DNA of 32,000 nucleotides from positions 264 through 32,263 of the forward strand of contig NZ_PGGB02000004.1 of the NCBI RefSeq assembly GCF_002803295.2, read 5' to 3'. The position numbers and the translations under genes are program-made. Position 1 is the stretch's first letter; the number at the start of each line of letters is the position of its first letter. The DNA is from Caedibacter taeniospiralis (GTDB taxonomy: Bacteria > Pseudomonadota > Gammaproteobacteria > Francisellales > Francisellaceae). Of the stretch, positions 1,205-16,069 are shown one piece after another. The notes under the pieces are model-generated. The model was given only the letters and a program-made list of their open reading frames with translations, made no database searches and was not told the DNA's origin.

Positions 1205-1687
1205 ATGAAGAAAGCTTTGATTCCCCTTTTAACAGTTGGCGTATTATTTTCCGCAATCAATTTCGCAGCCGAGTCAGGCAAAGCTGAAGTCATCGTTGAA
1301 GCTAAAAGCATTTTAGGTGATCTTAGCATGACTCAAAAAATTGTGATTTCAGCTGCTGATGTCACCGCGGGCAAAGATAAGATTTTTGAATTAGCCGAGT
1401 TCTGTACTTACACCAATAATAAAGATGGTAAAGTAACCATTGACATATCAACCAATGAGAAAAAATTTGCCGTTATTGGCACTAACAGCGAAGGCGAATT
1501 ACCTTACACCTTAACCATTAACAAAACTGCGGTCAATTACGGTAAGAACCTGTTGTATGTAGATAGCAACGACCTGCCTTCAGGCTGCAAAACGAAAGAA
1601 ATTGTTACCATGACATTCAAGGGCAGTGATATTCGTAATGCAAAAGCAGGAACTTATAACGCCTCATTGAATTTAAGTGTTGCGTAA
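1205..1687 (+). CDS. Fimbrial (pilin) subunit-like secreted protein, chaperone-usher type
   Basis: AGGTGA Shine-Dalgarno site before the ATG. Signal peptide MKKALIPLLTVGVLFSAINFAAE. The C-terminal beta-strand AGTYNASLNLSVA resembles the C-terminus of CS1/CFA-I-class and SCPU pilins. It is paralogous to ORF 2250-2765 and sits upstream of an usher-like gene. Confidence 0.55.
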   Translation: MKKALIPLLTVGVLFSAINFAAESGKAEVIVEAKSILGDLSMTQKIVISAADVTAGKDKIFELAEFCTYTNNKDGKVTIDISTNEKKFAVIGTNSEGELPYTLTINKTAVNYGKNLLYVDSNDLPSGCKTKEIVTMTFKGSDIRNAKAGTYNASLNLSVA

Positions 1688-1755
1688 TTCCAAGTAACTT
1701 CAGAAATAAACCTAGGGAGTTAAAGCACCCTTATTGTTTTGGTCAGGAATAAAAT

Positions 1756-2217
1756 ATGAGATTATTACAAATTTTAACTGTAAGTTTTTCACTTATTAGT
1801 TTCTCTGCTACGACCTTTGCTGGCGCCGTTCTTGATATTGTCAACCCAGAGGTTAGTATTAATCAAAAGAGTCAGCGTGGCTACATTCCAATCACAAATA
1901 TTGGTAATGAAAGTGGCACCTTCATTGTTCAAGTGAAAAACATTACAGATCCACAACATGTGATTACGTATAGCAACAAAGAACTTAAGTCATTACCTGT
2001 TATTATCAGCCCATTACTGATTCCTAATTTAGGCGCAGGCAATAACAAAAGGGTCTCTGTTCGCAAAAAGGGGAAGATTGAAACACCGATGAAACTGCAA
2101 ATAGTGATCAGTGAATACAAGAAACCCGTTGATAATAACGGCGACATTGCTGATGATGCAGCTGGCATTGATATTCAAGGCTCCATCCATTACATTGCCA
2201 ATATCGACGTAGCCTAG
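1756..2217 (+). CDS. Periplasmic Ig-fold protein, candidate single-domain PapD-like fimbrial chaperone
   Basis: Signal peptide (..SATTFAGA). The pattern IPITNIGNESGTFIVQVKNI ... PVIISPLLIPNLGAGNNKRVSVRKKG ... KLQIVISEYKKP resembles the N-terminal domain of PapD-type chaperones. At 153 aa there is no room for the second domain. Confidence 0.4.
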   Translation: MRLLQILTVSFSLISFSATTFAGAVLDIVNPEVSINQKSQRGYIPITNIGNESGTFIVQVKNITDPQHVITYSNKELKSLPVIISPLLIPNLGAGNNKRVSVRKKGKIETPMKLQIVISEYKKPVDNNGDIADDAAGIDIQGSIHYIANIDVA

Positions 2218-2249
2218 AGGCTAAAAGTTATTAACCAGAGGCATTTAAG

Positions 2250-2765
2250 ATGCGCATAACAAATCTGACGTTCAGCCTTTGCATATGCCTGCTGGCACTC
2301 TTCCCACTTATCAGCTTTAGCGCTCAGTTTAGCAACAACTCTAAATATTTTGATCGCCAGGCTACAGATGAAAAAGAAGATCCTCGCTTTGTCATTGGAA
2401 ACCTTTCGCTTAATGAGAAAATTGTCATCAGCGCCAGAATGATTACAGAAAACACAGATCAGGTTATTCCACTTGGAACTTTTTGTGCGTATCAAAAAGG
2501 TCATAATCCCTTTCCTTTGCGCATTACTACTAACGAAAATGGCTTTATAGCTAAAGGGTTAAATGGTCAAGGTAATCTCCCCTATCACATCCTTGTGAAT
2601 AAAGTTGAGCTTAACTATAACCAAAAGCAAATGATTGAAACCAATAATTATGCTTTTGACGAATGTCAACTCTATGAGAACCTTGCCATAAAGTTCTCCA
2701 AATATACCATTCAAAATGCTAAGGCTGGTCGCTACGAGCTGTCACTTATTCTACAAAGCACATAG
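2250..2765 (+). CDS. Second fimbrial subunit-like protein (paralogue of 1205-1687)
   Basis: Signal peptide. Blocks shared with the 160-aa protein: (Q/E)KIVISA, FC(T/A)Y, G(E/N)LPY, NK..(L/V)NY, NAKAG.Y..SL.L. The C-terminus AGRYELSLILQST is very like the remembered CooA/CfaB ending (GQYQGLVSIILT..). Confidence 0.55.
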   Translation: MRITNLTFSLCICLLALFPLISFSAQFSNNSKYFDRQATDEKEDPRFVIGNLSLNEKIVISARMITENTDQVIPLGTFCAYQKGHNPFPLRITTNENGFIAKGLNGQGNLPYHILVNKVELNYNQKQMIETNNYAFDECQLYENLAIKFSKYTIQNAKAGRYELSLILQST

Positions 2766-2768
2766 GCT

Positions 2769-5228
2769 ATGATTCATAGCAAGAAAAAACGTTTATGTTT
2801 ACTATTAGGTATCACAACACTATGCCCTTTGTTTTTACTAGGGTTCTCGCCCAAACTGAGTATTGCCTCTGATTTACCTCCTGGCTTTGAAGATTTTGTC
2901 GAAGAAGATGAAACCAGCCTGGTAACCATCATGTTTGGCAAGGAAAAGCTGCTAGAAACACCTGCCACATTTAATGACGATAAGATCACCTTTAACGAAC
3001 CTGATCTAATTCTAAGCAAGCTTAAACCTTATATTTCTAAAACAGCACAGCACTTATTGCTTGAAGAAATAACACAAACCCAAAAAACCAATGCGGATCG
3101 CTTATGCACTAAGGGTCCAAATTGCGGCTTTGTCAGACCTCAGGTCTTCGGTGTGATTTTTGATCGCAATAACTACCGTGCGCATATTTTTATTAATCCT
3201 AAATACTTACTCGCACAAGATTCTGTTCCCGCTAAATTTTTGAAAGATTCAACCGCAGGATTTGGTGTACTTAATTTATTTCAGCTTGGAGCATCTGGCA
3301 ATAATGATCAGAACCAATCTATGGCACTTAATCATAATGGTTATCTAGGCTATGGTAATTGGCACCTCGATTATAAAGATAACCTCACTTATTCGCTTAC
3401 ACCTGGACAGCCACCGATCAGGCAATTTCAATTTCGAGATTTTGATCTCAACTGGCGCCGTAAAGAATACCACTTATCCCTTGGCTTACAAGATACGGTT
3501 GGCACAATGATTATCCCAAGCTTACAGATTGTTGGAGCAAGCTTACAAACCAACCTTGAGCTTTTGACTAATTTAAATGAACAAATCGCAACACCCGTTG
3601 AAGTAAACATCATCGTACCAAGTTATGTGGATGTCTATCGTGGCAACACATTAATTGGCACACAATACTTTCCACCAGGCAATCATTTTTTGGACACGCA
3701 AAGCTTTCCATCTGGCGCTTATATACTCAGGCTTGAGACACGCACACTCACCAATCAGACCTCAAACAAACAGGTGTACTTCATTAAAACGAATGCACTG
3801 CCATTATTGACCCTGCCAAACTACGCTATAAGTTATGGGCGCTTGGCTGAGCCAACTTCTGATACGGTTTTTCCAACCCTGACTGATCTTGATGTTTTGA
3901 CCCTGGAAGCCAAACAACGCCTGAACAATTTTTTTGGCATTGGTGAGCACTTAACCATGTTTGCTCAAAGAGAGGTGCTTAGCGAATTTATGTTGATGAT
4001 GGAGTTGTCTCACTTGAGTTTTTATAACTCTTTTGCACTGAGCAACTTCGGTGACCTGGGTGTTGCGTTCTCGATAGCTGGGAATATTTCAGGCGTAACA
4101 CTTAATACGTTTTTTCGTCAAATGTGGGTTAAGGAAAATAATAACCGCTATATCAACCAATATTTTGAAGATACACAGACAAGCAATACCAACCTTGGCA
4201 CATCGCTATCCTTCAGATGGCATGACATTAATTTTATGACTTCATTAAGCTACGCCTATGTCGATAATAATTTTCAGCACGATTTTGGTTTTGATGTTTC
4301 AAAAACCTTTAGTTTGGCTGACAATAATGATTTGACACTTTCATTATCACTTGATCACTCTGAAAGCAATAAGAGTGCTTTTATACAGCTTAGCTGGAAT
4401 TTTGGCACACCACGTGGCTGGTATGTGGCAGCGGAGCTTGAAGGTCAGTTCAGCCAACAGCCTGATCAGGGAACTCAAAGACAAGAAAACACCAAATTGA
4501 ATATTGGCAAAGAATTCATCCATGCGGACTATCAAAATGATCTTGGTTTAAGCTCTGAGATAAATCATAACACGCAATATTATTCTCAATATGCAAGCAC
4601 GAACAACCGCTATTTCAATACCCTGCAACAGTTGAATCTGGCACAGGCTAAAAACAATAAAGATGTGATCAGCTACAATATTCAAACTTCAACTTCATTT
4701 GCCTACGCACCCCTTAGTAATTGGGGAATAAGTAGCTCAGACAATCGCAGTGGTGTCATGATTTATGTTGCTGCTGATGTTCCTAGTAAGTACACCGTCT
4801 ATGTCGATGGCAAGGAAAGCATTGTGATCAATAATAATCAAAGCTACTTTATATCTATGCCTATATATCAAGAACACAACATTCAAGTGCAGACACATGA
4901 GGTAACCCTCAGTGTGCCTAATAATGATCGCAATGTTATTCTTTATCCAGGTAACGTTGAAACCATCAGGCTAAACGCTAAACCTGCCATTTTAGTCATG
5001 GGAAATTTTATTAGCTCAACAGGAGAAATATTAAGCCATGCCAAAATCAGCGGAGGATTAGAACCTGGTGAAACTGACACGGATGGCTTTGCGCAAATCG
5101 ACGTTCTAACGGGGGCTAAGCTTATTCTTGAAACGATGGATGGTCAAAAGTGTAGCGTCAACTCAGGTACCTTGGCGAGTGAAGATGGCATTGCATTTAA
5201 GGATGAGATTGTTTGCACAGTGGAATAG
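2769..5228 (+). CDS. Outer-membrane fimbrial usher-like protein (CooC/CfaC/TcfC-like, alternate chaperone-usher class)
   Basis: 819 aa with a signal peptide and beta-rich, aromatic-rich composition. The N-terminal DLPPGFEDFV..VTIMFGKEKL..KITFNEPDLIL..C..GPNCGF layout and the C-terminal DGFAQIDV...KCSV region are reminiscent of CS1-class ushers. It starts 3 nt after the pilin gene. Confidence 0.55.
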   Translation: MIHSKKKRLCLLLGITTLCPLFLLGFSPKLSIASDLPPGFEDFVEEDETSLVTIMFGKEKLLETPATFNDDKITFNEPDLILSKLKPYISKTAQHLLLEEITQTQKTNADRLCTKGPNCGFVRPQVFGVIFDRNNYRAHIFINPKYLLAQDSVPAKFLKDSTAGFGVLNLFQLGASGNNDQNQSMALNHNGYLGYGNWHLDYKDNLTYSLTPGQPPIRQFQFRDFDLNWRRKEYHLSLGLQDTVGTMIIPSLQIVGASLQTNLELLTNLNEQIATPVEVNIIVPSYVDVYRGNTLIGTQYFPPGNHFLDTQSFPSGAYILRLETRTLTNQTSNKQVYFIKTNALPLLTLPNYAISYGRLAEPTSDTVFPTLTDLDVLTLEAKQRLNNFFGIGEHLTMFAQREVLSEFMLMMELSHLSFYNSFALSNFGDLGVAFSIAGNISGVTLNTFFRQMWVKENNNRYINQYFEDTQTSNTNLGTSLSFRWHDINFMTSLSYAYVDNNFQHDFGFDVSKTFSLADNNDLTLSLSLDHSESNKSAFIQLSWNFGTPRGWYVAAELEGQFSQQPDQGTQRQENTKLNIGKEFIHADYQNDLGLSSEINHNTQYYSQYASTNNRYFNTLQQLNLAQAKNNKDVISYNIQTSTSFAYAPLSNWGISSSDNRSGVMIYVAADVPSKYTVYVDGKESIVINNNQSYFISMPIYQEHNIQVQTHEVTLSVPNNDRNVILYPGNVETIRLNAKPAILVMGNFISSTGEILSHAKISGGLEPGETDTDGFAQIDVLTGAKLILETMDGQKCSVNSGTLASEDGIAFKDEIVCTVE

Positions 5229-7383: not shown

Positions 7384-8715
7384 ATGGGGAAGCTTATCAG
7401 CAACGGCAAACACTATCTTCGATTTTGGGCTTTTCCTGCTTTACTGATTATGTTTGTGATCTTAAATCTATTTTTCATCGTGCTCTCGTACCAGCAATAT
7501 CGATATCATCAATATCACAAGACGTTGTACTCGCTGACCAATACCACTTTTAAAGTCTATCTGCAGCAATACCATGCACAGCAGTTGAAGTTTGAAGCGA
7601 TTGATCCTGTGCCCAGCTATATTACCTACGAATTTACTGCTAAGCCCACATTTTCCCCTGTCATTGAGCTCGACATACCAACCAAACAACAAAAAAACAG
7701 TCACCTTTTATACACTGAAATTAAAAATCAGATCAAAAATGAACTGGGGGAACTTCCCTTTTTCCATTCCAAACAGATTTCTATCTGTTACGTTGATCTT
7801 ATGCAATGCGCAAACTTCACCATTGAATTGCCAAATCGCTATTATCTGTACTTTTTGCTGTTGACTTTTGCTATCTTTATGGTGCTCATTATCCCCTTGC
7901 ACTTTCTATACAGTCAAAGACTGCTTCAACCATTTTTGCGCATGCAACAAATTGCAGACAAACTGGACATTAATAACAATCCCTCCGTAATACAGCCTTT
8001 TAACGTTAAAAATTTAGCGGATTTAATGGAACAAACCTGTCACAAACTCAATAAGCTAATGGATGAAAAAATATATACCATTAAGGCCATCTCTCATGAT
8101 TTAAAAACACCTATAACGAAGGCCAAGTTATATACCTATAACCAGGTGCCTGAAAAACATCACCCTGAGCTTCTCAAATATTATGACGACATGGAATACT
8201 TGCTGACACAAATTGGTCATTATACAAAAAAGCAATACTTGAACGAAAAGCAACACAAAATTGACGTGGTCGACTTTAGTGAGTCGATATGTCATGAATA
8301 TCAACTAAATGGCTTTGAGGTCAGCTTTTCAACCACACTGACAACAGCGCTGATCACCATTCAACATAAGGCATTTAAACGCGTTATGCAGAATCTGATC
8401 GACAACGCTTTAAAGTACGCAGGCAGCGTTACAGTCGTGCTGAAATACGATAATAATGAACTGTGCTTATTCTTTACGGACAAGGGTCCTGGCGTTGCAA
8501 CGGAGCATTTAAGCAAACTATGTGATCCTTTTTATCGCGTCGATGCTGCTCGCAGTCATAACGTCTCAGGTTCAGGGCTTGGTCTTGCCATTGTCAAAGA
8601 GATTCTTGTACACAATCAAGCTAAATTAGTGATTTTCAACAATAACCCACCACCTGGGTTAAGCGTCAAAATCTCATTTAGTCATGTTATTTTGGTACAA
8701 TCAATGGAAACATAA
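7384..8715 (+). CDS. Membrane sensor histidine kinase (HisKA + HATPase_c), orphan
   Basis: AGGGAG Shine-Dalgarno site. Two hydrophobic segments. H-box ISHDLKTPIT, N-box NLIDNALKYA, G1 DKGPGV, G2 GSGLGLAIVKE. No response regulator gene is adjacent. Confidence 0.85.
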   Translation: MGKLISNGKHYLRFWAFPALLIMFVILNLFFIVLSYQQYRYHQYHKTLYSLTNTTFKVYLQQYHAQQLKFEAIDPVPSYITYEFTAKPTFSPVIELDIPTKQQKNSHLLYTEIKNQIKNELGELPFFHSKQISICYVDLMQCANFTIELPNRYYLYFLLLTFAIFMVLIIPLHFLYSQRLLQPFLRMQQIADKLDINNNPSVIQPFNVKNLADLMEQTCHKLNKLMDEKIYTIKAISHDLKTPITKAKLYTYNQVPEKHHPELLKYYDDMEYLLTQIGHYTKKQYLNEKQHKIDVVDFSESICHEYQLNGFEVSFSTTLTTALITIQHKAFKRVMQNLIDNALKYAGSVTVVLKYDNNELCLFFTDKGPGVATEHLSKLCDPFYRVDAARSHNVSGSGLGLAIVKEILVHNQAKLVIFNNNPPPGLSVKISFSHVILVQSMET

Positions 8716-9063: not shown

Positions 9064-10686
9064 TTATCCTATTAGTTTCCCATTTTTTGTGTAGCTGGCA
9101 ATAGCTGTAAAGCCTGGACAAAAACCGTCTGTTGAAAGTATTTCTTTATCAAAATCAGTTACAGTTTTCAGTATCTTTATATTTAATGGTATTAAACGCT
9201 CCTGCGAATAATCGTCATATTGGGTGCAAGATCCGATTTTATTTAATTCAGAATTATTAATTTCAATGTCATCTGAGTAAAGGAAAAAACCTAAATCTCT
9301 TGGGTAAAAATTCCAATTCTTTCCATGTAATAATAAGCCCTCTTTTGCTGTTACATTATTGAAATATAGCTTAAGTTTGGCTGTCTTATCAGTAAAAATT
9401 GTGTCCCTTAAAATAAACACGAAGTTATCTCCTTCTTTATCGGCATCTATCACAACGTGATTAAAATAAATTGGTTTTGGGGTTAGGTTTTCTGTCTTAA
9501 CCCTAACCAAGCCGCGACCATAATCAGCTTTTTCAGCTACTAAAACTTTTAGGTTTTCAAAGCTATTCGCCTCTCCAATCATCAAATATCCATTAGGATA
9601 AAAGTGTAATATCGCTTGATTTTCACCTTGCATAACTAAACCAGCAGGGATCGTTACTTCACTTGTGATTCGATACTCAATTGGAGCAAGCTTAATCACA
9701 ACAGGATGATCCGCATCCAGCTTGGGCGAAATATTTGGATCGTTTTGCGCAATAGCGATCAGATCCTGCAAACTTTGTCCTTTATGTCCATAAATCACAC
9801 GATCTTGAATGGTAAATCCTTGTTTTGCCACCGTATCAACACGAGCTGAAAGATCTTTGACCTTGGTGTCATATTTTTGATCAAGCTCATTCACAAATTG
9901 CATGGCTTTGTCTGCAGCAGTACTTGCCTTATCTGCGGTGGTACTGGCTTTATCAGAAGCATTCCTGGCATCTTTTGCATTGCTTTCAGCGGTACTCAGT
10001 CTTTGATCAAACTGATCTACCTTATCAGCAGAAGCTTTAGCGCTATCCGCTGTTTGTTTGGCAGTATTTGCGGTCTCGGTGGCAGTAGTTGCAGCTTCGC
10101 TTGCTTTATCAGCGGCGGCTTTAGCCGCATCTGCGGTAGCTTTAATACCATCTGCCGTTTGTTTAGCCGTATCAGCTATTTGTTTTGCTTCGGTTGCCTT
10201 GCTCTCAGCAGCACTGACTCGGCTATCATAGCTATCTACCTTGGTGGAAGCCGTTTGTGCGGTTTGTGTGGCACCTTTAGCTTGCTCGTTGGCAGAGGAC
10301 GCAATTTGTTTGGCAGAAGTAGCATCGCTTTCTGCATTAATAAGACGCGTATCAAAGCTTGCGACCTTTGTTGCTGCTTGCTGTGCGATGGTATTCGCAT
10401 CATTAGCTGTTGTTATGGCAGTGTCGGCTTTATTGCTGGCTGTTTTTGCTGCCGTTTCCGCATTGTTAGCATGAGCTTCGGCATTGCTGGCATGGGTTTC
10501 TGCTTGAACAGTCTGAGCAGAAATCTCATCAATCGAATCTTCAATCGAATCTGCCCAGCCATAATTAAGTGCATCAATTAAGCTCTTAAGTGTTGGCAGA
10601 TGTGTAGGATCAAGATAGGGAAGCTTAGCATTCCCCATAGAGGTCATTGCTAGAGCAATACCCCCGATAATAAGTTTTGTTTTCAT
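9064..10686 (-). CDS. Secreted alanine-rich coiled-coil protein with a C-terminal beta-rich globular domain (surface or extracellular protein, function unknown)
   Basis: AGGAGA Shine-Dalgarno site. Signal peptide MKTKLIIGGIALAMTSMGNA. Residues ~57-289 are Ala/Thr/Lys/Asp-rich heptad-like repeats, with KV(A/D)xFDxR(L/V)xxAESxA occurring three times. The C-terminal ~250 aa are non-repetitive and beta-rich. Confidence 0.7.
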   Translation of the reverse strand: MKTKLIIGGIALAMTSMGNAKLPYLDPTHLPTLKSLIDALNYGWADSIEDSIDEISAQTVQAETHASNAEAHANNAETAAKTASNKADTAITTANDANTIAQQAATKVASFDTRLINAESDATSAKQIASSANEQAKGATQTAQTASTKVDSYDSRVSAAESKATEAKQIADTAKQTADGIKATADAAKAAADKASEAATTATETANTAKQTADSAKASADKVDQFDQRLSTAESNAKDARNASDKASTTADKASTAADKAMQFVNELDQKYDTKVKDLSARVDTVAKQGFTIQDRVIYGHKGQSLQDLIAIAQNDPNISPKLDADHPVVIKLAPIEYRITSEVTIPAGLVMQGENQAILHFYPNGYLMIGEANSFENLKVLVAEKADYGRGLVRVKTENLTPKPIYFNHVVIDADKEGDNFVFILRDTIFTDKTAKLKLYFNNVTAKEGLLLHGKNWNFYPRDLGFFLYSDDIEINNSELNKIGSCTQYDDYSQERLIPLNIKILKTVTDFDKEILSTDGFCPGFTAIASYTKNGKLIG

Positions 10687-10713
10687 TATTTCTCCTGTCG
10701 TTACTAATTTTTA

Positions 10714-10786
10714 ATTCAACATTCAACATTCAACATTCAACATTCAACATTCAACATTCAACATTCAACATTCAACATTCAACATT
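10714..10786. repeat. Perfect heptanucleotide tandem repeat (ATTCAAC)x10 plus a partial unit; GTTGAAT on the coding (minus) strand of both flanking genes
   Basis: Counted directly: ten exact units at 10714-10783, then ATT. The array starts at the stop codon of the upstream OMP gene (TAA at 10787-10785). It ends 27 nt upstream of the ATG at 10686. Confidence 0.97.
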
Positions 10787-11576
10787 AAAAATGATAACCA
10801 AGACTGAAGGACAGATTGAGCATATTGGGCACATAACTGCTGCCGTAATAAGGCGCATAAGTATTTTTTCCAAGACCAAAAATATATTGTGCCTCCAGCG
10901 CAAGACTTAGGGAGTATGGCAGTAAATATTGATAACCCAATGAAATAAATGGGCGGATATTGGTTTTATTCATTCCTTTTAATGCTGGATTGTGATAGGC
11001 GGGGATAGTGGTTGTAGGACTGAACTTGGAAAAAACAATGGCAGGTCCCGTGGATAACAAAATTTCACTATCGATACTGGCGATAGGAAAGTGCGCGGTC
11101 ATTGATGGATTAATGCCAGAAAAAGCCATTTTAATTTCTCCATTGGAGAATATTGAGCCACCATTATCAAGATTAAATGAAGCTGTTGCGCTACTTGCAT
11201 ACCAATAGCGCACGCCAAAAGATAAATATTGCCATGGGCGAATACCAAACTCGGCAGCAAAGTAAGGAGAATAGCGTTTAGCGGGTTGGTAAACATCAGA
11301 TGTACCCGCTCCAGGCAGCTCAACCGTTTGTTTTGACTGCGGAAAGCTTTTGTACGAAGCGCCACCGTAGACGCCAACATAAAACCAATCCTGGGCAGCC
11401 AGTGTTGTTCTTCGATCATCCTGAGCCAGAGTGATACGAATAGCAGTATCCAAATCGCTTGATCTTGCCGATGCTGGATTGCCTGCTGATTCCGAAATAA
11501 TATCCGAATTTGCGTAAACAGTTCCATTTGTAACACTTAAAATGGGTAATAGTATCAAGTGAAGTTTTCTCATCAT
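10785..11576 (-). CDS. Outer-membrane beta-barrel protein (OMP_b-brl/opacity-like family)
   Basis: Signal peptide MMRKLHLILLPILSVTNGTVYA. DWFYVGVYGGASY motif, alternating aromatic strands, and the terminal ..SFSLGYHF with a C-terminal Phe. The track start at 11582 is GTG. The ATG at 11576 is preceded by TAAGGTG and is preferred. Confidence 0.65.
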   Translation of the reverse strand: MMRKLHLILLPILSVTNGTVYANSDIISESAGNPASARSSDLDTAIRITLAQDDRRTTLAAQDWFYVGVYGGASYKSFPQSKQTVELPGAGTSDVYQPAKRYSPYFAAEFGIRPWQYLSFGVRYWYASSATASFNLDNGGSIFSNGEIKMAFSGINPSMTAHFPIASIDSEILLSTGPAIVFSKFSPTTTIPAYHNPALKGMNKTNIRPFISLGYQYLLPYSLSLALEAQYIFGLGKNTYAPYYGSSYVPNMLNLSFSLGYHF

Positions 11577-11758
11577 TAGCACCTTAGTTGCTTAAAACAT
11601 GGGGGATGATAAAAATAAATCAAAGGGTGCGCGACATTAATTCAAAAAGATGGACAAAATGATGACTTTTGAGTGAAAAGATGCTTTTTACTGAAAATTT
11701 CCCTTCCTGCTAATCAAAAGAAAAAGAGTGGCTATTAAGGCAAAAATCAGTATAATTC

Positions 11759-12595
11759 GTGCTAAAAATGACTTCAATACACTCTAACTCAATGCCTGCA
11801 ATTAAAGATGTACATAGATGGAGTTTCCCGAAGCATAAGAATGCGCTCAAGAGACTAATTAAACCAATGACTGATAAATTATGTGCAACTGGATTATCTT
11901 ATACTCGGTTATTTGAAAATGGGCAGGTGATTGATTTACCCGTATTGGAGTGTGAGCTACATGGAGTATGGTTGGAAGGAAATCCCAACCAAGACCCTGC
12001 GTTTCTTTTAAACAATGTAACAAAAATTCCAAAAATGATGTGGTATCACGAATTAGGCTCTTTTTTGTGCACAGAAGATCAATCTCACTACGCCTTTATT
12101 GAAAATATGCGTCCATTTGACCCTTGCCTGTCGTACATTAAATATAACAAGGATAATTCGATTAGTCGCCTTTCCGTAATTACTTCATGCCCAATACTTG
12201 GATTTTTCAGTGATAAACATCATGTGCTGGATCAATGTATAACTTCGATTGAGTCTTATTTATTTGATCCTAAGACAAGATTTGCTCAAGATTTCGACAT
12301 TTCTAATGACATTACCCCTATTGTTTTTAAGGGTGTTAAAGATAGTGTTATCCTTGATGTTTTATCTCAGTTTACAACTCAGGAACTGGCTTGTTTCAAA
12401 TTAATTTACACAGGGCATTATGAGTCAAAAGAAATTGCATCGAAACTTCAAAAATCGCCAAGAACAATCGAAGGGATTATTGCACGACTTTTACATAAGC
12501 TAAATTGTAATAATAAGTATGAGCTGGCAGTAAAGATCAGCAAAATGCACGATGTAATGCGATTCGTGCTTGTAAGGGTAAGTGCTACCACATGA
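11759..12595 (+). CDS. LuxR-family transcriptional regulator, paralogue 1 (C-terminal GerE/LuxR HTH, ~200-aa N-terminal domain of unknown type)
   Basis: C-terminal block FTTQELACFKLIYTGHYESKEIASKLQKSPRTIEGIIARLLHKLNCNNKYELAVK matches the LuxR/GerE HTH. The track start at 11759 is GTG; the ATG at 11768 is an alternative. TATAAT at 11751-11756. Confidence 0.65.
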   Translation: MLKMTSIHSNSMPAIKDVHRWSFPKHKNALKRLIKPMTDKLCATGLSYTRLFENGQVIDLPVLECELHGVWLEGNPNQDPAFLLNNVTKIPKMMWYHELGSFLCTEDQSHYAFIENMRPFDPCLSYIKYNKDNSISRLSVITSCPILGFFSDKHHVLDQCITSIESYLFDPKTRFAQDFDISNDITPIVFKGVKDSVILDVLSQFTTQELACFKLIYTGHYESKEIASKLQKSPRTIEGIIARLLHKLNCNNKYELAVKISKMHDVMRFVLVRVSATT

Positions 12596-12639
12596 CAATA
12601 GTTAAGTCAATACGTAACATTACGCTATTTTAAAGGCAA

Positions 12640-13497
12640 ATGAGCAGGTACAATATTGATCAGTTTGTAGCAATTAAATACGGCAAACAACTCATGGAGG
12701 TTATGAATACAATGAATGGTTCAATACAAACCCGTCCTTTAGCGGATATATATAAACAGCAATGGAAAAAATATGAACACATCTTAACCAGGATAACTAA
12801 ATCGCTTGATTTTCCTTTCCAAATTGAAGGTCTGGCTTATACCGAAACCTTTAAGTCGGGGATAGCAATTAGTATCCCGTTAAAATATTGCGACGCTTTT
12901 TCTGTCTGGACGCAGTCTGAGAGAGCTTACATATCCTCTTTTTCCGCCATAGCTAAGCGTCCCAAAGTGGTAACGCTGGACGAACTTCACGCCTACGCCA
13001 AAGACAAGCTCCCATACCACTTATCCCTCATCACGCAAGATCAGCTTATGCTATTGCCTATTCAGTACAACCACAATTCAAAGGGCTCGATTGCAAACTT
13101 ATGTATATTTGTCAAAAAAAGTGAGTATTTTCATGCTTATGTCCGATATGCACATCTGGATGTGACCAGTTTAACCCAGCATGTAAGGCAATTGCTTCAT
13201 CAGGAATATCAAAATGTGATTACTGAGTTTCTGGTAGATACCGCACCAGATTACAATGATTTAAAAGAGATTTCAGCGATAAACACGGTGGAATTGACTG
13301 CAGCAGAAAAATCATTTTTGCACGCCATCTACGACGGGAGCTATGAAACAAAGCAAATTGCAGAACGCCTAAACAAGTCAGTTAGAACGATTGAAGGAGT
13401 AATGGGGCGAGTCGTAGATAAACTTGAATGTAAAAATAGATATGATCTTTTTGTAAAAGTTAAAAACAATCATTCATTTTTAAGTTGTATTATTTAG
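12640..13497 (+). CDS. LuxR-family transcriptional regulator, paralogue 2
   Basis: C-terminal LTAAEKSFLHAIYDGSYETKQIAERLNKSVRTIEGVMGRVVDKLECKNRYDLFVK. Same length and architecture as its neighbours. Confidence 0.65.
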   Translation: MSRYNIDQFVAIKYGKQLMEVMNTMNGSIQTRPLADIYKQQWKKYEHILTRITKSLDFPFQIEGLAYTETFKSGIAISIPLKYCDAFSVWTQSERAYISSFSAIAKRPKVVTLDELHAYAKDKLPYHLSLITQDQLMLLPIQYNHNSKGSIANLCIFVKKSEYFHAYVRYAHLDVTSLTQHVRQLLHQEYQNVITEFLVDTAPDYNDLKEISAINTVELTAAEKSFLHAIYDGSYETKQIAERLNKSVRTIEGVMGRVVDKLECKNRYDLFVKVKNNHSFLSCII

Positions 13498-14346
13498 ATG
13501 TCTTGGGGTATGGAGCTGCCTTCAATGAATACAGTTCAAACAATTTATACGCATTCGTATAGGAAATATGAGCGAAAATTCAATACAATACTTAAAAATG
13601 CAGCATTCAACTTCAAAATTGAAGCAATGGCGTATCAGCGTTGTTATGCAGATGAGAAAGTGTTATCAGTACCGCTATTGGCAGACGATAGTTTAGATGG
13701 ATACTATAACTCACCTAATGCAGACAAAGCGATTTTCCTTGATTTCAGAAATTTGCTGCTATCCCCTACCATTAATAGCATGTGTTATAAAAATGCGGTG
13801 TATCAACTTTATAACCAGTCCTTTTGTTTCGATCACATTATTTCTAATGAATCACGATCAGCTTTACCATGGCATTTGCATTATCACAACGATCATTCAA
13901 TTAGCTTTCTTTGTGTTTTTGTCAACAAAACGGATGCTATTCTTGCTAACAAAGTATTTTATAGCGGATATTTTAATCGATTACATCAGGCGATTGAGCA
14001 GTCGGTTTTAGCAAATACACGGGAATTTGATTTAAATGATTTTATTTTCAATAACTCAAGTCCAACCGTACCATTGCTGTTGGAGTCTGTCCCCAAAGCA
14101 CAATTCGCTGAGCTCAGCTATGCTGAGAATCTTTGTTTTTTAGCTATTTATCAAGGTCATTATGAAGTGAAAGAAATAGCAGGATATGTTAATCGCTCGC
14201 CAAGAACAATTGAGGGGCACATCGCTTCAATGATCCAAAAGTTAAAAGTCAATAACCGTTATGAGCTTTTTATCAAATTAGCTCAAGCACACGAGCATAT
14301 GCGTTATTTAGCGCACTGGTTTTGGATAAAGAACTCCAGCAAATAA
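13498..14346 (+). CDS. LuxR-family transcriptional regulator, paralogue 3
   Basis: The ATG directly abuts the previous stop (TAGATG). C-terminal LSYAENLCFLAIYQGHYEVKEIAGYVNRSPRTIEGHIASMIQKLKVNNRYELFIK. Confidence 0.65.
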   Translation: MSWGMELPSMNTVQTIYTHSYRKYERKFNTILKNAAFNFKIEAMAYQRCYADEKVLSVPLLADDSLDGYYNSPNADKAIFLDFRNLLLSPTINSMCYKNAVYQLYNQSFCFDHIISNESRSALPWHLHYHNDHSISFLCVFVNKTDAILANKVFYSGYFNRLHQAIEQSVLANTREFDLNDFIFNNSSPTVPLLLESVPKAQFAELSYAENLCFLAIYQGHYEVKEIAGYVNRSPRTIEGHIASMIQKLKVNNRYELFIKLAQAHEHMRYLAHWFWIKNSSK

Positions 14347-14418: not shown

Positions 14419-14982
14419 TCATCTGAACCATTGATCTGCCAGATTAAAGCTTCTCAAGAACTCAAAACTCGGCAGCCAGCGCAGATGTGATAGGAGTGAG
14501 TGGTTGTCGTCATACGGCTTAAGTAATAGCGCCAGTTGGTCTTTGAAACTGGTTTTAAAGCCAACGATTTCATCCAGTAGTTGAGAACGCTCGGCTAACT
14601 CTGAAATGGCTTCCTGAATAGCAAAAATATCTTGTTTTTGCTTAATCATTTTTTGCCAATGATGATAATGTTGATGAAGCCTTTGCTGAGACTCCGTTGG
14701 TAAATAAATAATATATTGTTCTGCTTGTGTGAGCTGAAAGTTAAAGTCCAGATGTTGCACATAAGTGCAAAAATCGCATGCAAGAACCATGTTTTTCAGG
14801 GCATTGTTGGTGTAATCATGATTAAGATTAATGATATGCAACGGGGTATTTTCATGCTGGCAAAAGTGACAACATGTTTGCTGTTCAAACATTTTTTGAA
14901 AACACTCACGATATTTCGGTGCACGCGTACGCTCTAAAAACAAGCGGCTATTATTGGGGATGGCTAAGATCTTTAGTGACAT
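14419..14982 (-). CDS. dotN: DotN/IcmJ, zinc-binding subunit of the type IV coupling complex
   Basis: Blocks matching remembered L. pneumophila IcmJ: LKILAIPNNSRLFLER, CCHFC..., NHDYTNNALKNMVLACDFC, IIYLPTESQQ, LRWLPS. The start is ambiguous. ATG 14982 gives the TAACATG junction with dotM. ATGs at 15000/14997 or 15027 would overlap dotM. Confidence 0.85.
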   Translation of the reverse strand: MSLKILAIPNNSRLFLERTRAPKYRECFQKMFEQQTCCHFCQHENTPLHIINLNHDYTNNALKNMVLACDFCTYVQHLDFNFQLTQAEQYIIYLPTESQQRLHQHYHHWQKMIKQKQDIFAIQEAISELAERSQLLDEIVGFKTSFKDQLALLLKPYDDNHSLLSHLRWLPSFEFLRSFNLADQWFR

Positions 14983-14983
14983 G

Positions 14984-16069
14984 TTAGGATTGATCATCAT
15001 GTAATGACTCGTGAAGTTGATATTCATGCTGTAGCGCAGTTATAACATTATCAATCATGGCAGAAGAAAAAGACGCATTCAGGCTTTCTTCAAATTGCCA
15101 ATGAGTAGTAATAGCGGCACCTTCGACAAAAAAGGTTTTTCTGCCGACATTGTTAAGTGCATACCATAAAGTACGATTAACAGTTTTAAGCCATAAAAAT
15201 GAGGAAGAAGGAACTATTCCCCCTTTTCTTGCCGTACTTAATAAGGCACACAACAGTGTTGAGGTATAGTGATGTTTGCTCATAATTGTCTGGATTTCTG
15301 CATGAGCAATACATTCGCTTAAGTGTTTATTTAAAAAATGATTCAGCTTTTGTGTAGTAAAAAACTTTTTCACTCCATTGGTGTTACCATGACCAAACTC
15401 ACTATTCAAATAGGTCAAAAGTTTATCTGCTTGCTTACGCTTGTCTAAAATACACAAGGGAAACACAGTAGCCAACCCATAAATTTCTACATCTTCTTTG
15501 GTTAATCCATTCAAAGCTCTGCCAAGCTGTTGAGTCAGATTCTCATAAAGAAGATTAAGATCAAGCTTGCCATTAGCGATTAAATGATGGTGTTGCAAAT
15601 ACTCAACAGGTGTTAATGCGGTCTCAAGTTTTACTTTGGACTGAGTTTGGCTGCTATTTGGCGTATAAACTTTGGTAAAATGGTGTGCAATAAATTGGGA
15701 TAGACTCTGCATTGAAAAGGTTTTTCGGTATTTGCGATCAGGATGGAAGAAAAAAAGCACCAAAATAAAAACAACCCCAAGCACCCAGAATGAAGTTGTC
15801 AATGCTTCACTGGTATTGTATCCAAGATACTTGAGTTGCTTCAGTGTTACCGTTGAATCCAGGACATGGTTGCACCAATTCATTAGCATGCTGTAGTGAC
15901 CATCCCATAGCATAATAATGGACAGCTCAAAACGCTTTATCATAAATATTGCTCTAATGAATTGGTTGTGAAATAGCCAGTAAAGCAAAAGTAATGTTAA
16001 TAAAATAATGGCAACCATGTAGGTAGGTGCCATGCCATTATCATTACCAGTATTAGGTGAATTAGCCAT
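14984..16069 (-). CDS. dotM: DotM/IcmP, inner-membrane subunit of the type IV coupling complex
   Basis: N-terminal TM segment, then FLWLKTVNRTLWYALNNVGRKTFFVEGAAITTHWQFE, matching the remembered conserved IcmP block. Preferred start is ATG 16069, preceded by GGAGA. The track start at 16114 would overlap orf98 by 53 nt. Confidence 0.8.
   Translation of the reverse strand: MANSPNTGNDNGMAPTYMVAIILLTLLLLYWLFHNQFIRAIFMIKRFELSIIMLWDGHYSMLMNWCNHVLDSTVTLKQLKYLGYNTSEALTTSFWVLGVVFILVLFFFHPDRKYRKTFSMQSLSQFIAHHFTKVYTPNSSQTQSKVKLETALTPVEYLQHHHLIANGKLDLNLLYENLTQQLGRALNGLTKEDVEIYGLATVFPLCILDKRKQADKLLTYLNSEFGHGNTNGVKKFFTTQKLNHFLNKHLSECIAHAEIQTIMSKHHYTSTLLCALLSTARKGGIVPSSSFLWLKTVNRTLWYALNNVGRKTFFVEGAAITTHWQFEESLNASFSSAMIDNVITALQHEYQLHESLHDDQS

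Follow-up and report, generated by a model that had tools for sequence, protein, structure and literature searches.

In the 32,000-nt stretch of Caedibacter taeniospiralis DNA analyzed here (the window), a probable outer-membrane protein gene is separated from the gene of a 540-aa alanine-zipper protein (hereafter the fibre gene) by a spacer with a pure heptanucleotide array, (GTTGAAT)x10, whose number of units differs between closely related strains. By its structure and by comparison of strains, the locus looks like a contingency locus. The unit is short and pure, within the 1-9 bp typical of such loci, and the array is of slippable length (ten exact 7-bp units). Its position also agrees with loci whose repeats lie in the frame, promoter or leader of a gene, the ATG of the 540-aa gene being only 27 nt away. 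The copy number varies between close strains (10, 5 and at least 7 units, and 2 versus 6 units of a second heptamer, TAAGAAT, in a sister clade), and the adjoining gene encodes an allele-diverse coiled-coil protein with a signal peptide, a class typically linked to contingency repeats. The explanation that we favour, although we give it slightly less than an even chance, is that the array is a hypermutable leader repeat that modulates the expression of the fibre gene as a graded dial.

All ten units are exact and run from 10783 to 10714 on the minus strand; the plus strand reads (ATTCAAC)n. The order on the minus strand is GGT TAT CAT TTT, the stop codon TAA (10787-10785), a single T, the ten units, TAAAAATTAGTAACGACAGGAGAAATA, and the ATG at 10686, so that the array starts 1 nt past the stop codon of the upstream gene. 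On the 3' side of the array, the heptads TAAAAAT and TAGTAAC are followed by GACAGGAGAAATA and then by the ATG, and the Shine-Dalgarno sequence AGGAGA (10696-10691) lies 17 nt from the end of the array. Tandem Repeats Finder placed the repeat at 10714-10786 with a period of 7, 10.4 copies, 100% matches and 0 indels; the call reaches 10786 because AAT, which closes each unit, also spans the end of the stop codon. An earlier reading of this DNA made from its letters alone (the sequence-only reading) had reported ten exact heptamers without a degenerate copy, the 27-nt distance to the ATG and the Shine-Dalgarno sequence, and all of these hold. The interval that it gave to the array, 10687-10790, is right as the extent of the whole spacer and too wide for the array itself.

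The array stands alone in the window. The 14-mer made of two units occurs nine times, all counted as overlapping occurrences, where shuffled sequences give an expectation of 0.02. Outside the array, there are 12 single GTTGAAT heptamers, where 7.9 +/- 3.1 would be expected in the window as a whole, and since this count is close to expectation, GTTGAAT is not a dispersed motif here. In addition, the array is the sole exact tandem repeat with at least three copies at periods 4-9 in the 32 kb. Two-copy heptamer seeds are present elsewhere at 4970 and 26617, in agreement with the chance expectation of 2.0 +/- 1.3; one of them could be compared with a related strain (L130), where it is unchanged and unexpanded. 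Within the 32 kb, the array is therefore no dispersed microsatellite of the kind that the sequence-only reading had warned might be found at many unrelated sites.

Related loci were collected through homologues and cluster members (exact look-ups of the 263/265-aa and 540-aa proteins gave no match), and their spacer alleles were read in steps of 7 nt, beginning with the first base past the stop codon. Relative to the window, whose spacer is (GTTGAAT)10 TAAAAAT TAGTAAC and measures 98 nt, assembly GCA_013572825.1 (L002/L130), with flanks 99.4-99.9% identical, carries (GTTGAAT)5 with the same tail in a spacer of 63 nt. Assembly GCA_031972495.1 (L001), with flanks 99.3-100% identical, has at least 7 units in an incomplete spacer, the contig starting inside the array. 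Variation in copy number among related isolates, which the sequence-only reading had proposed to look for, is thus present at flanks at least 99.3% identical, and the array is, to judge from these alleles, unstable over short evolutionary times.

In a sister clade, a different heptamer has changed in number. Five contigs from JGI and Logan metagenomes (L124, L125, L126, L128 and L136), ~94-95% identical to the window, share the allele (GTTGAAT)2 TAAAAAT TAGAAAT (TAAGAAT)2 TGATAAA AGCAGGA..., with a spacer of 63 nt, and a further contig (ENA ERZ27247881, L134), whose flanking genes are 98.2-99.3% identical to those of L124, carries (GTTGAAT)2 TAAAAAT TAGAAAT (TAAGAAT)6 TAGTAAC, with a spacer of 91 nt. 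Between TAAAAAT and the last heptads, this clade therefore has TAGAAAT and either two or six copies of TAAGAAT, while GTTGAAT is constant at two. Each of the two clades is thus length-polymorphic at the same spacer site for a different heptamer, and each of the complete spacers (98, 63, 91 and 63 nt) is a multiple of 7. That a second heptamer has expanded independently in the same spacer makes the contingency reading stronger. A flank-anchored metagenome scan found no locus beyond those described above, and a contig from run ERR3813248 is 100% identical to the window.

Free-living relatives have the gene pair without the repeat. The two genes have the same order and orientation in Cysteiniphilum (L131) and in Fastidiosibacter lacustris (L132), where the spacers measure 67 nt and 207 nt, respectively, and no tandem repeat was found in either of these spacers. 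The heptad repeat is, on this comparison, specific to the Caedibacter lineage. In Cysteiniphilum, the pair adjoins GerE-type regulators (469-2961), as it does in the window; in Fastidiosibacter, it lies directly 3' of dotL-dotM-dotN (L132 1-2876), and this position suggests a functional link of the pair with the Dot/Icm secretion system.

The 540-aa protein matches Pfam Alanine_zipper (1.5e-14) and NCBIfam Ala_zip_lipo, and it has a Sec-type signal peptide in which the lipobox Cys is absent by inspection. The description of a secreted coiled-coil protein in the sequence-only reading is therefore sound as regards the signal peptide and the Ala-rich coiled coil, while exposure at the cell surface is inferred. 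In the AlphaFold model, a long helix extends as far as about residue 287 and gives way to a strand-rich C-terminal domain; the confidence of the model is low overall (predicted local distance difference test, pLDDT, 54.5) and reaches ~85-90 for residues 300-390. All Foldseek matches against the PDB are weak (E >= 0.02), and all are right-handed beta-helices (GH55 glucanases, phage tailspikes, pectin methylesterases and the PfbA adhesin). Tentatively, the model thus points to a coiled-coil stalk bearing a beta-helix-like head.

Comparison of alleles shows where this protein varies. Between the window and L130, the histidine kinase gene is 99.7% and the upstream gene 99.4% identical, whereas the last 807 nt of the fibre gene (window 9064-9870) have no detectable nucleotide similarity to L130 (6600-7600). 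The first 167 residues of the two proteins are near-identical, ~29 residues of coiled coil are missing from the L130 allele, the alignment is weak from about residue 230 on, and the overall identity is 52%. This pattern looks like allele replacement, or diversifying selection, acting on an exposed head domain. The coiled-coil stalk (codons ~168-205, window ~10060-10180) is also variable, with ~29 residues fewer in a 501-aa allele and 4 fewer in a 536-aa allele; since the stalk consists of internally repetitive Ala-rich segments, its length may also vary by recombination. As a separate observation, the first 126 nt of the fibre gene (10561-10686) are 95.2% identical to L001 and L130, in surroundings more than 99% identical, and this cluster of substitutions adjoining the array is possibly a recombination tract.

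The upstream gene probably starts at ATG 11576, which is preceded by the Shine-Dalgarno sequence TAAGGTG and gives a product of 263 aa, the length of its orthologues. About 10 long strands are predicted in the protein, which also has a signal peptide and ends in ...GYHF. Profile searches against Pfam, NCBIfam and PDB gave no match, and the AlphaFold model (pLDDT 43), although it shows some ten long strands, is too poor for a structure search. The label of outer-membrane protein in the sequence-only reading is thus backed by the signal peptide, the strand pattern and the terminal residues and finds no backing in families or structures; an outer-membrane beta-barrel is probable.

That same reading had left the array either in a promoter of the fibre gene or in an intercistronic leader, and had singled out TTGAAT within the unit as a -35-like hexamer. 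A consensus scan of the spacer found no -35/-10 pair that uses TTGAAT of the array, with no -10 element at 16-18 nt. The sole consensus match in the spacer, TTAAAA-18-AATAAT, overlaps the start codon and cannot serve the fibre gene, and the same holds in L134. The consensus scans thus give no support to a promoter within the array. No terminator-like hairpin was found after the upstream gene in either the window or L134, and since the gene order is in addition conserved in three genera, a leader is favoured over a promoter: the two genes likeliest form a two-gene operon, with the array in its intercistronic leader. Alternatively, transcription of the fibre gene might start from a promoter within the 3' end of the preceding gene, in which case the array would belong to a 5' untranslated region (UTR). 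A sigma-70 consensus scan yielded 3 sites against 5.2 expected from shuffles, so that the candidate operon promoter at 11749..11777 is weakly supported. A switch that works through the spacing of -35 and -10 elements was also considered and rejected, the array being too long at 70 bp and no bracketing pair of hexamers having been found. For a non-coding array, an on/off phase switch is in general unlikely, and a graded effect is the realistic expectation.

At the RNA level, the GUUGAAU array is predicted to fold into an imperfect self-hairpin of A-U and G-U pairs, worth ~2.5 kcal/mol per unit (minimum free energy -25.4 kcal/mol, z = -2.6), and such a hairpin could act as a processing site that grows with copy number. 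An Rfam search gave no family match. What GTTGAAT and TAAGAAT have in common is the 7-nt step, the ending GAAT, AU-richness and the lack of C. AU-rich leaders can boost translation through ribosomal protein S1 and are targets of RNase E; either would give a graded effect. The MLNVEC mini-open reading frames (mini-ORFs) that the sequence-only reading had noticed are indeed present in the array. Their chain opens at a UAAUG overlap, where the stop codon of the upstream gene (10787-10785) overlaps an ATG (TAATG in the DNA), and the end of the chain depends on n mod 3, where n is the number of units. With n mod 3 = 1, as for the 10 units of the window, the chain ends 24 nt before the ATG of the fibre gene; this distance is 29 nt when n mod 3 = 0. 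When n mod 3 = 2, as for 5 units, the chain runs through the Shine-Dalgarno sequence and the start codon and ends 62 nt inside the coding sequence.

In the explanation that we favour, slipped-strand mispairing in replication would add or remove heptamer units, and the transcript of the fibre gene would include the array, as intercistronic leader or 5' UTR. The length of the array would then tune how much fibre protein is made, whether through the stability or processing of the mRNA, through translation initiation on an AU-rich leader, or through coupling to the upstream cistron, and the output would be a graded volume control rather than an on/off switch. Nearly as likely is a neutral variable-number tandem repeat, a by-product of slippage in a small-population endosymbiont that is tolerated in a non-essential spacer without any effect on expression. 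A number of points speak for neutrality or otherwise weigh against an expression dial. Any pure repeat of ten units is expected to differ between strains, whether functional or not, and in obligate endosymbionts, small populations and DNA repair that is often weakened favour the neutral growth of repeats. Only five distinct spacer alleles were recovered. No promoter element is tied to copy number, and control of Shine-Dalgarno accessibility by copy number found no support, the predicted unpaired probability remaining constant over 0-15 units for both the Shine-Dalgarno sequence (0.29) and the AUG (0.10). The self-hairpin is probably not common to both arrays; by inspection, UAAGAAU units pair poorly. 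The degenerate flanking heptads TAAAAAT, TAGAAAT and TAGTAAC look like microsatellite birth and decay. Finally, GTTGAAT arrays of at least 3 exact units occur, among the matches listed, in at least 120 contigs of unrelated phyla (Bacteroidota, Verrucomicrobiota, Thermoanaerobaculia, Campylobacterales, Acinetobacter and cyanobacteria), mostly with 3-4 units and in a few cases with 10-19 (e.g., L090 6089-6221, L006, L054, L010 and L082), so that the unit itself is nothing special; a scan of viral sequences gave no match. On the other hand, a neutral process has to account for a repeat that is the only one of its kind in 32 kb, for the independent growth of two different units in one spacer of ~60 nt in sister clades, for the position of the array directly before the most allele-diverse gene of the region, and for a comparable two-copy heptamer seed that did not expand. 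In a stronger version of the dial, which we regard as unlikely though worth stating, selection would have made the entire spacer into a heptad rheostat of tunable length, for which GTTGAAT and TAAGAAT would have been recruited independently in the two clades to vary the leader of a Dot/Icm-linked fibre gene in steps of 7 nt.

The remaining explanations are much less probable. The NNNGAAT heptads might be putative half-sites for LuxR/GerE-type regulators, with copy number setting the amount of bound regulator. Three paralogues with a GerE-type helix-turn-helix (HTH) adjoin the gene pair, an arrangement kept in Cysteiniphilum, and both expanded units end in GAAT. HTH proteins of the NarL/FixJ family (NarL, BvgA and RcsB) have half-sites of ~7 bp, and TAAGAAT resembles the left half of the RcsAB box, a resemblance that we treat as a lead only. 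However, the divergent promoter region (11583-11758) has another direct repeat (11657-11697) and no GTTGAAT array, the heptamer is not enriched elsewhere in the window, and Cysteiniphilum has the regulators and a spacer without heptads; we therefore consider an operator array improbable. Somewhat lower still stands a three-state translational coupling, in which ribosomes would re-initiate at UAAUG and pass along the chained MLNVEC mini-ORFs, whose end, set by n mod 3, would alter initiation at the fibre gene. The start of the chain at the overlap and its shifting end agree with this, yet the AUGs of the mini-ORFs have no Shine-Dalgarno sequence, the ATG and TGA content follows automatically from the sequence of the unit, and the TAAGAAT array of the sister clade, which by inspection has no ATG, allows no chain at all. 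Least probable is that the array length is an assembler error. One contig (L001) does end inside the array, which implies that assemblers struggle there, but assemblies made independently in different projects cover the whole spacer between clean unique flanks and differ in unit number, four independent metagenome contigs and one Logan contig agree exactly on the sister-clade allele, and an array of 70 bp is shorter than typical reads.

The host, C. taeniospiralis, belongs to Thiotrichales, Fastidiosibacteraceae, and is a killer-trait endosymbiont of Paramecium tetraurelia with a genome of 1.32 Mb (PMC7297999). The 540-aa protein is 100% identical to WP_158106939.1 of this species, and the neighbouring histidine kinase is identical to its WP_100550393.1, which is encoded on a contig of 101.9 kb. 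The Legionellales-like frame in which the sequence-only reading had placed the DNA is thus mistaken, although the impression is understandable because Dot/Icm type IVB secretion genes lie in the window. Three tandem LuxR/GerE-type paralogues are divergent from the gene pair. Each has a C-terminal HTH and an uncharacterised N-terminal domain of ~200 aa, with no receiver domain detected, and they are putative candidates for regulating the locus. The direct repeat at 11657-11697 already mentioned (AAAAGATGACTTTTGACTG, + strand) separates the first of them from the outer-membrane protein gene, with a period of 18-19 bp and 2.2 copies, which is a possible operator site. Farther away, a chaperone-usher pilus cluster (1205-5228) consists of small open reading frames of 160, 153 and 171 aa followed by the 819-aa usher. 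The coordinates of the features are collected in Table 1.

Table 1. Features of the window, in window coordinates, beginning with the spacer and its two genes
Feature	Coordinates	Strand	Remarks
Pure (GTTGAAT)x10 heptanucleotide array	10714..10783	-	Repeat finder, motif counts
Rest of spacer in 7-nt register: TAAAAAT TAGTAAC GACAGGA GAAATA	10687..10713	-	Contains AGGAGA (10696-10691)
540-aa alanine-zipper protein gene (= WP_158106939.1)	9064..10686	-	Directly 3' of array
Probable beta-barrel outer-membrane protein, 263 aa from ATG 11576	10785..11576	-	265 aa from GTG 11582
Candidate operon promoter TTGAAG-17-TATACT	11749..11777	-	Sole sigma-70-like match 5' of gene pair, weak
Three tandem LuxR/GerE-type helix-turn-helix paralogues	11759..14346	+	Divergent from gene pair
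icmJ/dotN	14419-15027		Dot/Icm type IVB gene
dotM	14984-16114		Dot/Icm type IVB gene
dotL	16355-18700		Dot/Icm type IVB gene
dotB	18943-20076		Dot/Icm type IVB gene
dotC	20083-20841		Dot/Icm type IVB gene
dotD	20844-21329		Dot/Icm type IVB gene
Histidine kinase	7384-8715
Chaperone-usher pilus usher, 819 aa	2769-5228		TcfC and CooC_C domains

Irrespective of function, strains of Caedibacter can be typed by this highly discriminating spacer, in cultures as well as in metagenomes. If the array tunes expression, stochastic repeat-driven surface variation would not be confined to pathogens that face adaptive immunity and would also occur in an obligate ciliate symbiont, beside Dot/Icm secretion genes. 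A fibre with a swappable C-terminal head would then be a probable determinant of host or phage interaction in a killer-trait symbiosis. The literature search found no paper that links Caedibacter to tandem-repeat variation, and the genome and transcriptome papers on C. taeniospiralis (Dual-Seq PMC7297999 and its supplement) do not mention the locus. Should the spacer be a heptad rheostat, no locus of this sort would have been described before in Fastidiosibacteraceae or in an endosymbiont of a ciliate; it would serve the bacterium as a contingency locus by which the fibre level, or the proportion of outer-membrane protein to fibre, is adjusted to interact with the host or to avoid phages.

Such repeats have several known counterparts. 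In Coxiella burnetii, intergenic repeats of 6-7 bp serve as typing markers without known function; they are similarly short-unit, strain-variable intergenic arrays of an intracellular gammaproteobacterium. They are not known to be tied to any class of genes, whereas the Caedibacter array abuts the ribosome-binding site of an allele-diverse secreted-protein gene and two units have expanded at its site. The TA repeats of hifA/hifB in Haemophilus influenzae and the homopolymers of Neisseria opc and porA act by -35/-10 spacing. They share with the present locus a slippage-prone non-coding repeat 5' of a gene for a surface protein, or in Caedibacter a presumed one, but a Caedibacter array of 35-70 bp is unable to change such spacing. 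Closer in effect is uspA2 of Moraxella catarrhalis, where an AGAT repeat in the 5' UTR is reported to set the expression level of a coiled-coil surface protein and not to turn it on or off. In both cases a non-triplet repeat lies in the leader, a presumed one in Caedibacter, of a coiled-coil gene. Unlike the heptads, the uspA2 repeat is a tetranucleotide, and the gene is monocistronic and encodes a trimeric autotransporter whose regulation is experimentally established, while the effect in Caedibacter is a proposed one.

The closest counterpart is the heptanucleotide repeat of the H. influenzae adhesin genes hmw1A/hmw2A, (ATCTTTC)n, whose copy number ranges from 9 to 28 between isolates (PMC2424069, PMC8262952). 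The active P2 transcript carries this repeat in its 5' UTR, more copies lead stepwise to less mRNA and protein, the effect may act on transcription, mRNA stability or translation, and the adhesin has a highly variable binding domain (PMC2424069, PMC8262952). Likewise, in Caedibacter a 7-bp unit of strain-variable copy number lies just 5' of a gene for a secreted protein with a variable domain. The sequence of the unit is different, however, and the protein is an alanine-zipper protein rather than a two-partner-secretion adhesin (Pfam, NCBIfam); the array follows a cistron and is probably intercistronic, and the bacterium that carries it is an endosymbiont of a protist and no human pathogen. 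Membership in the HMW type was accordingly rejected, the linked protein having only alanine-zipper/coiled-coil matches in Pfam and NCBIfam, and the locus is better called an analogue. As far as anatomy goes, the Caedibacter locus resembles the hmw1A/hmw2A system, and it may be a further example, in an unusual host, of a kind of system known from human pathogens.

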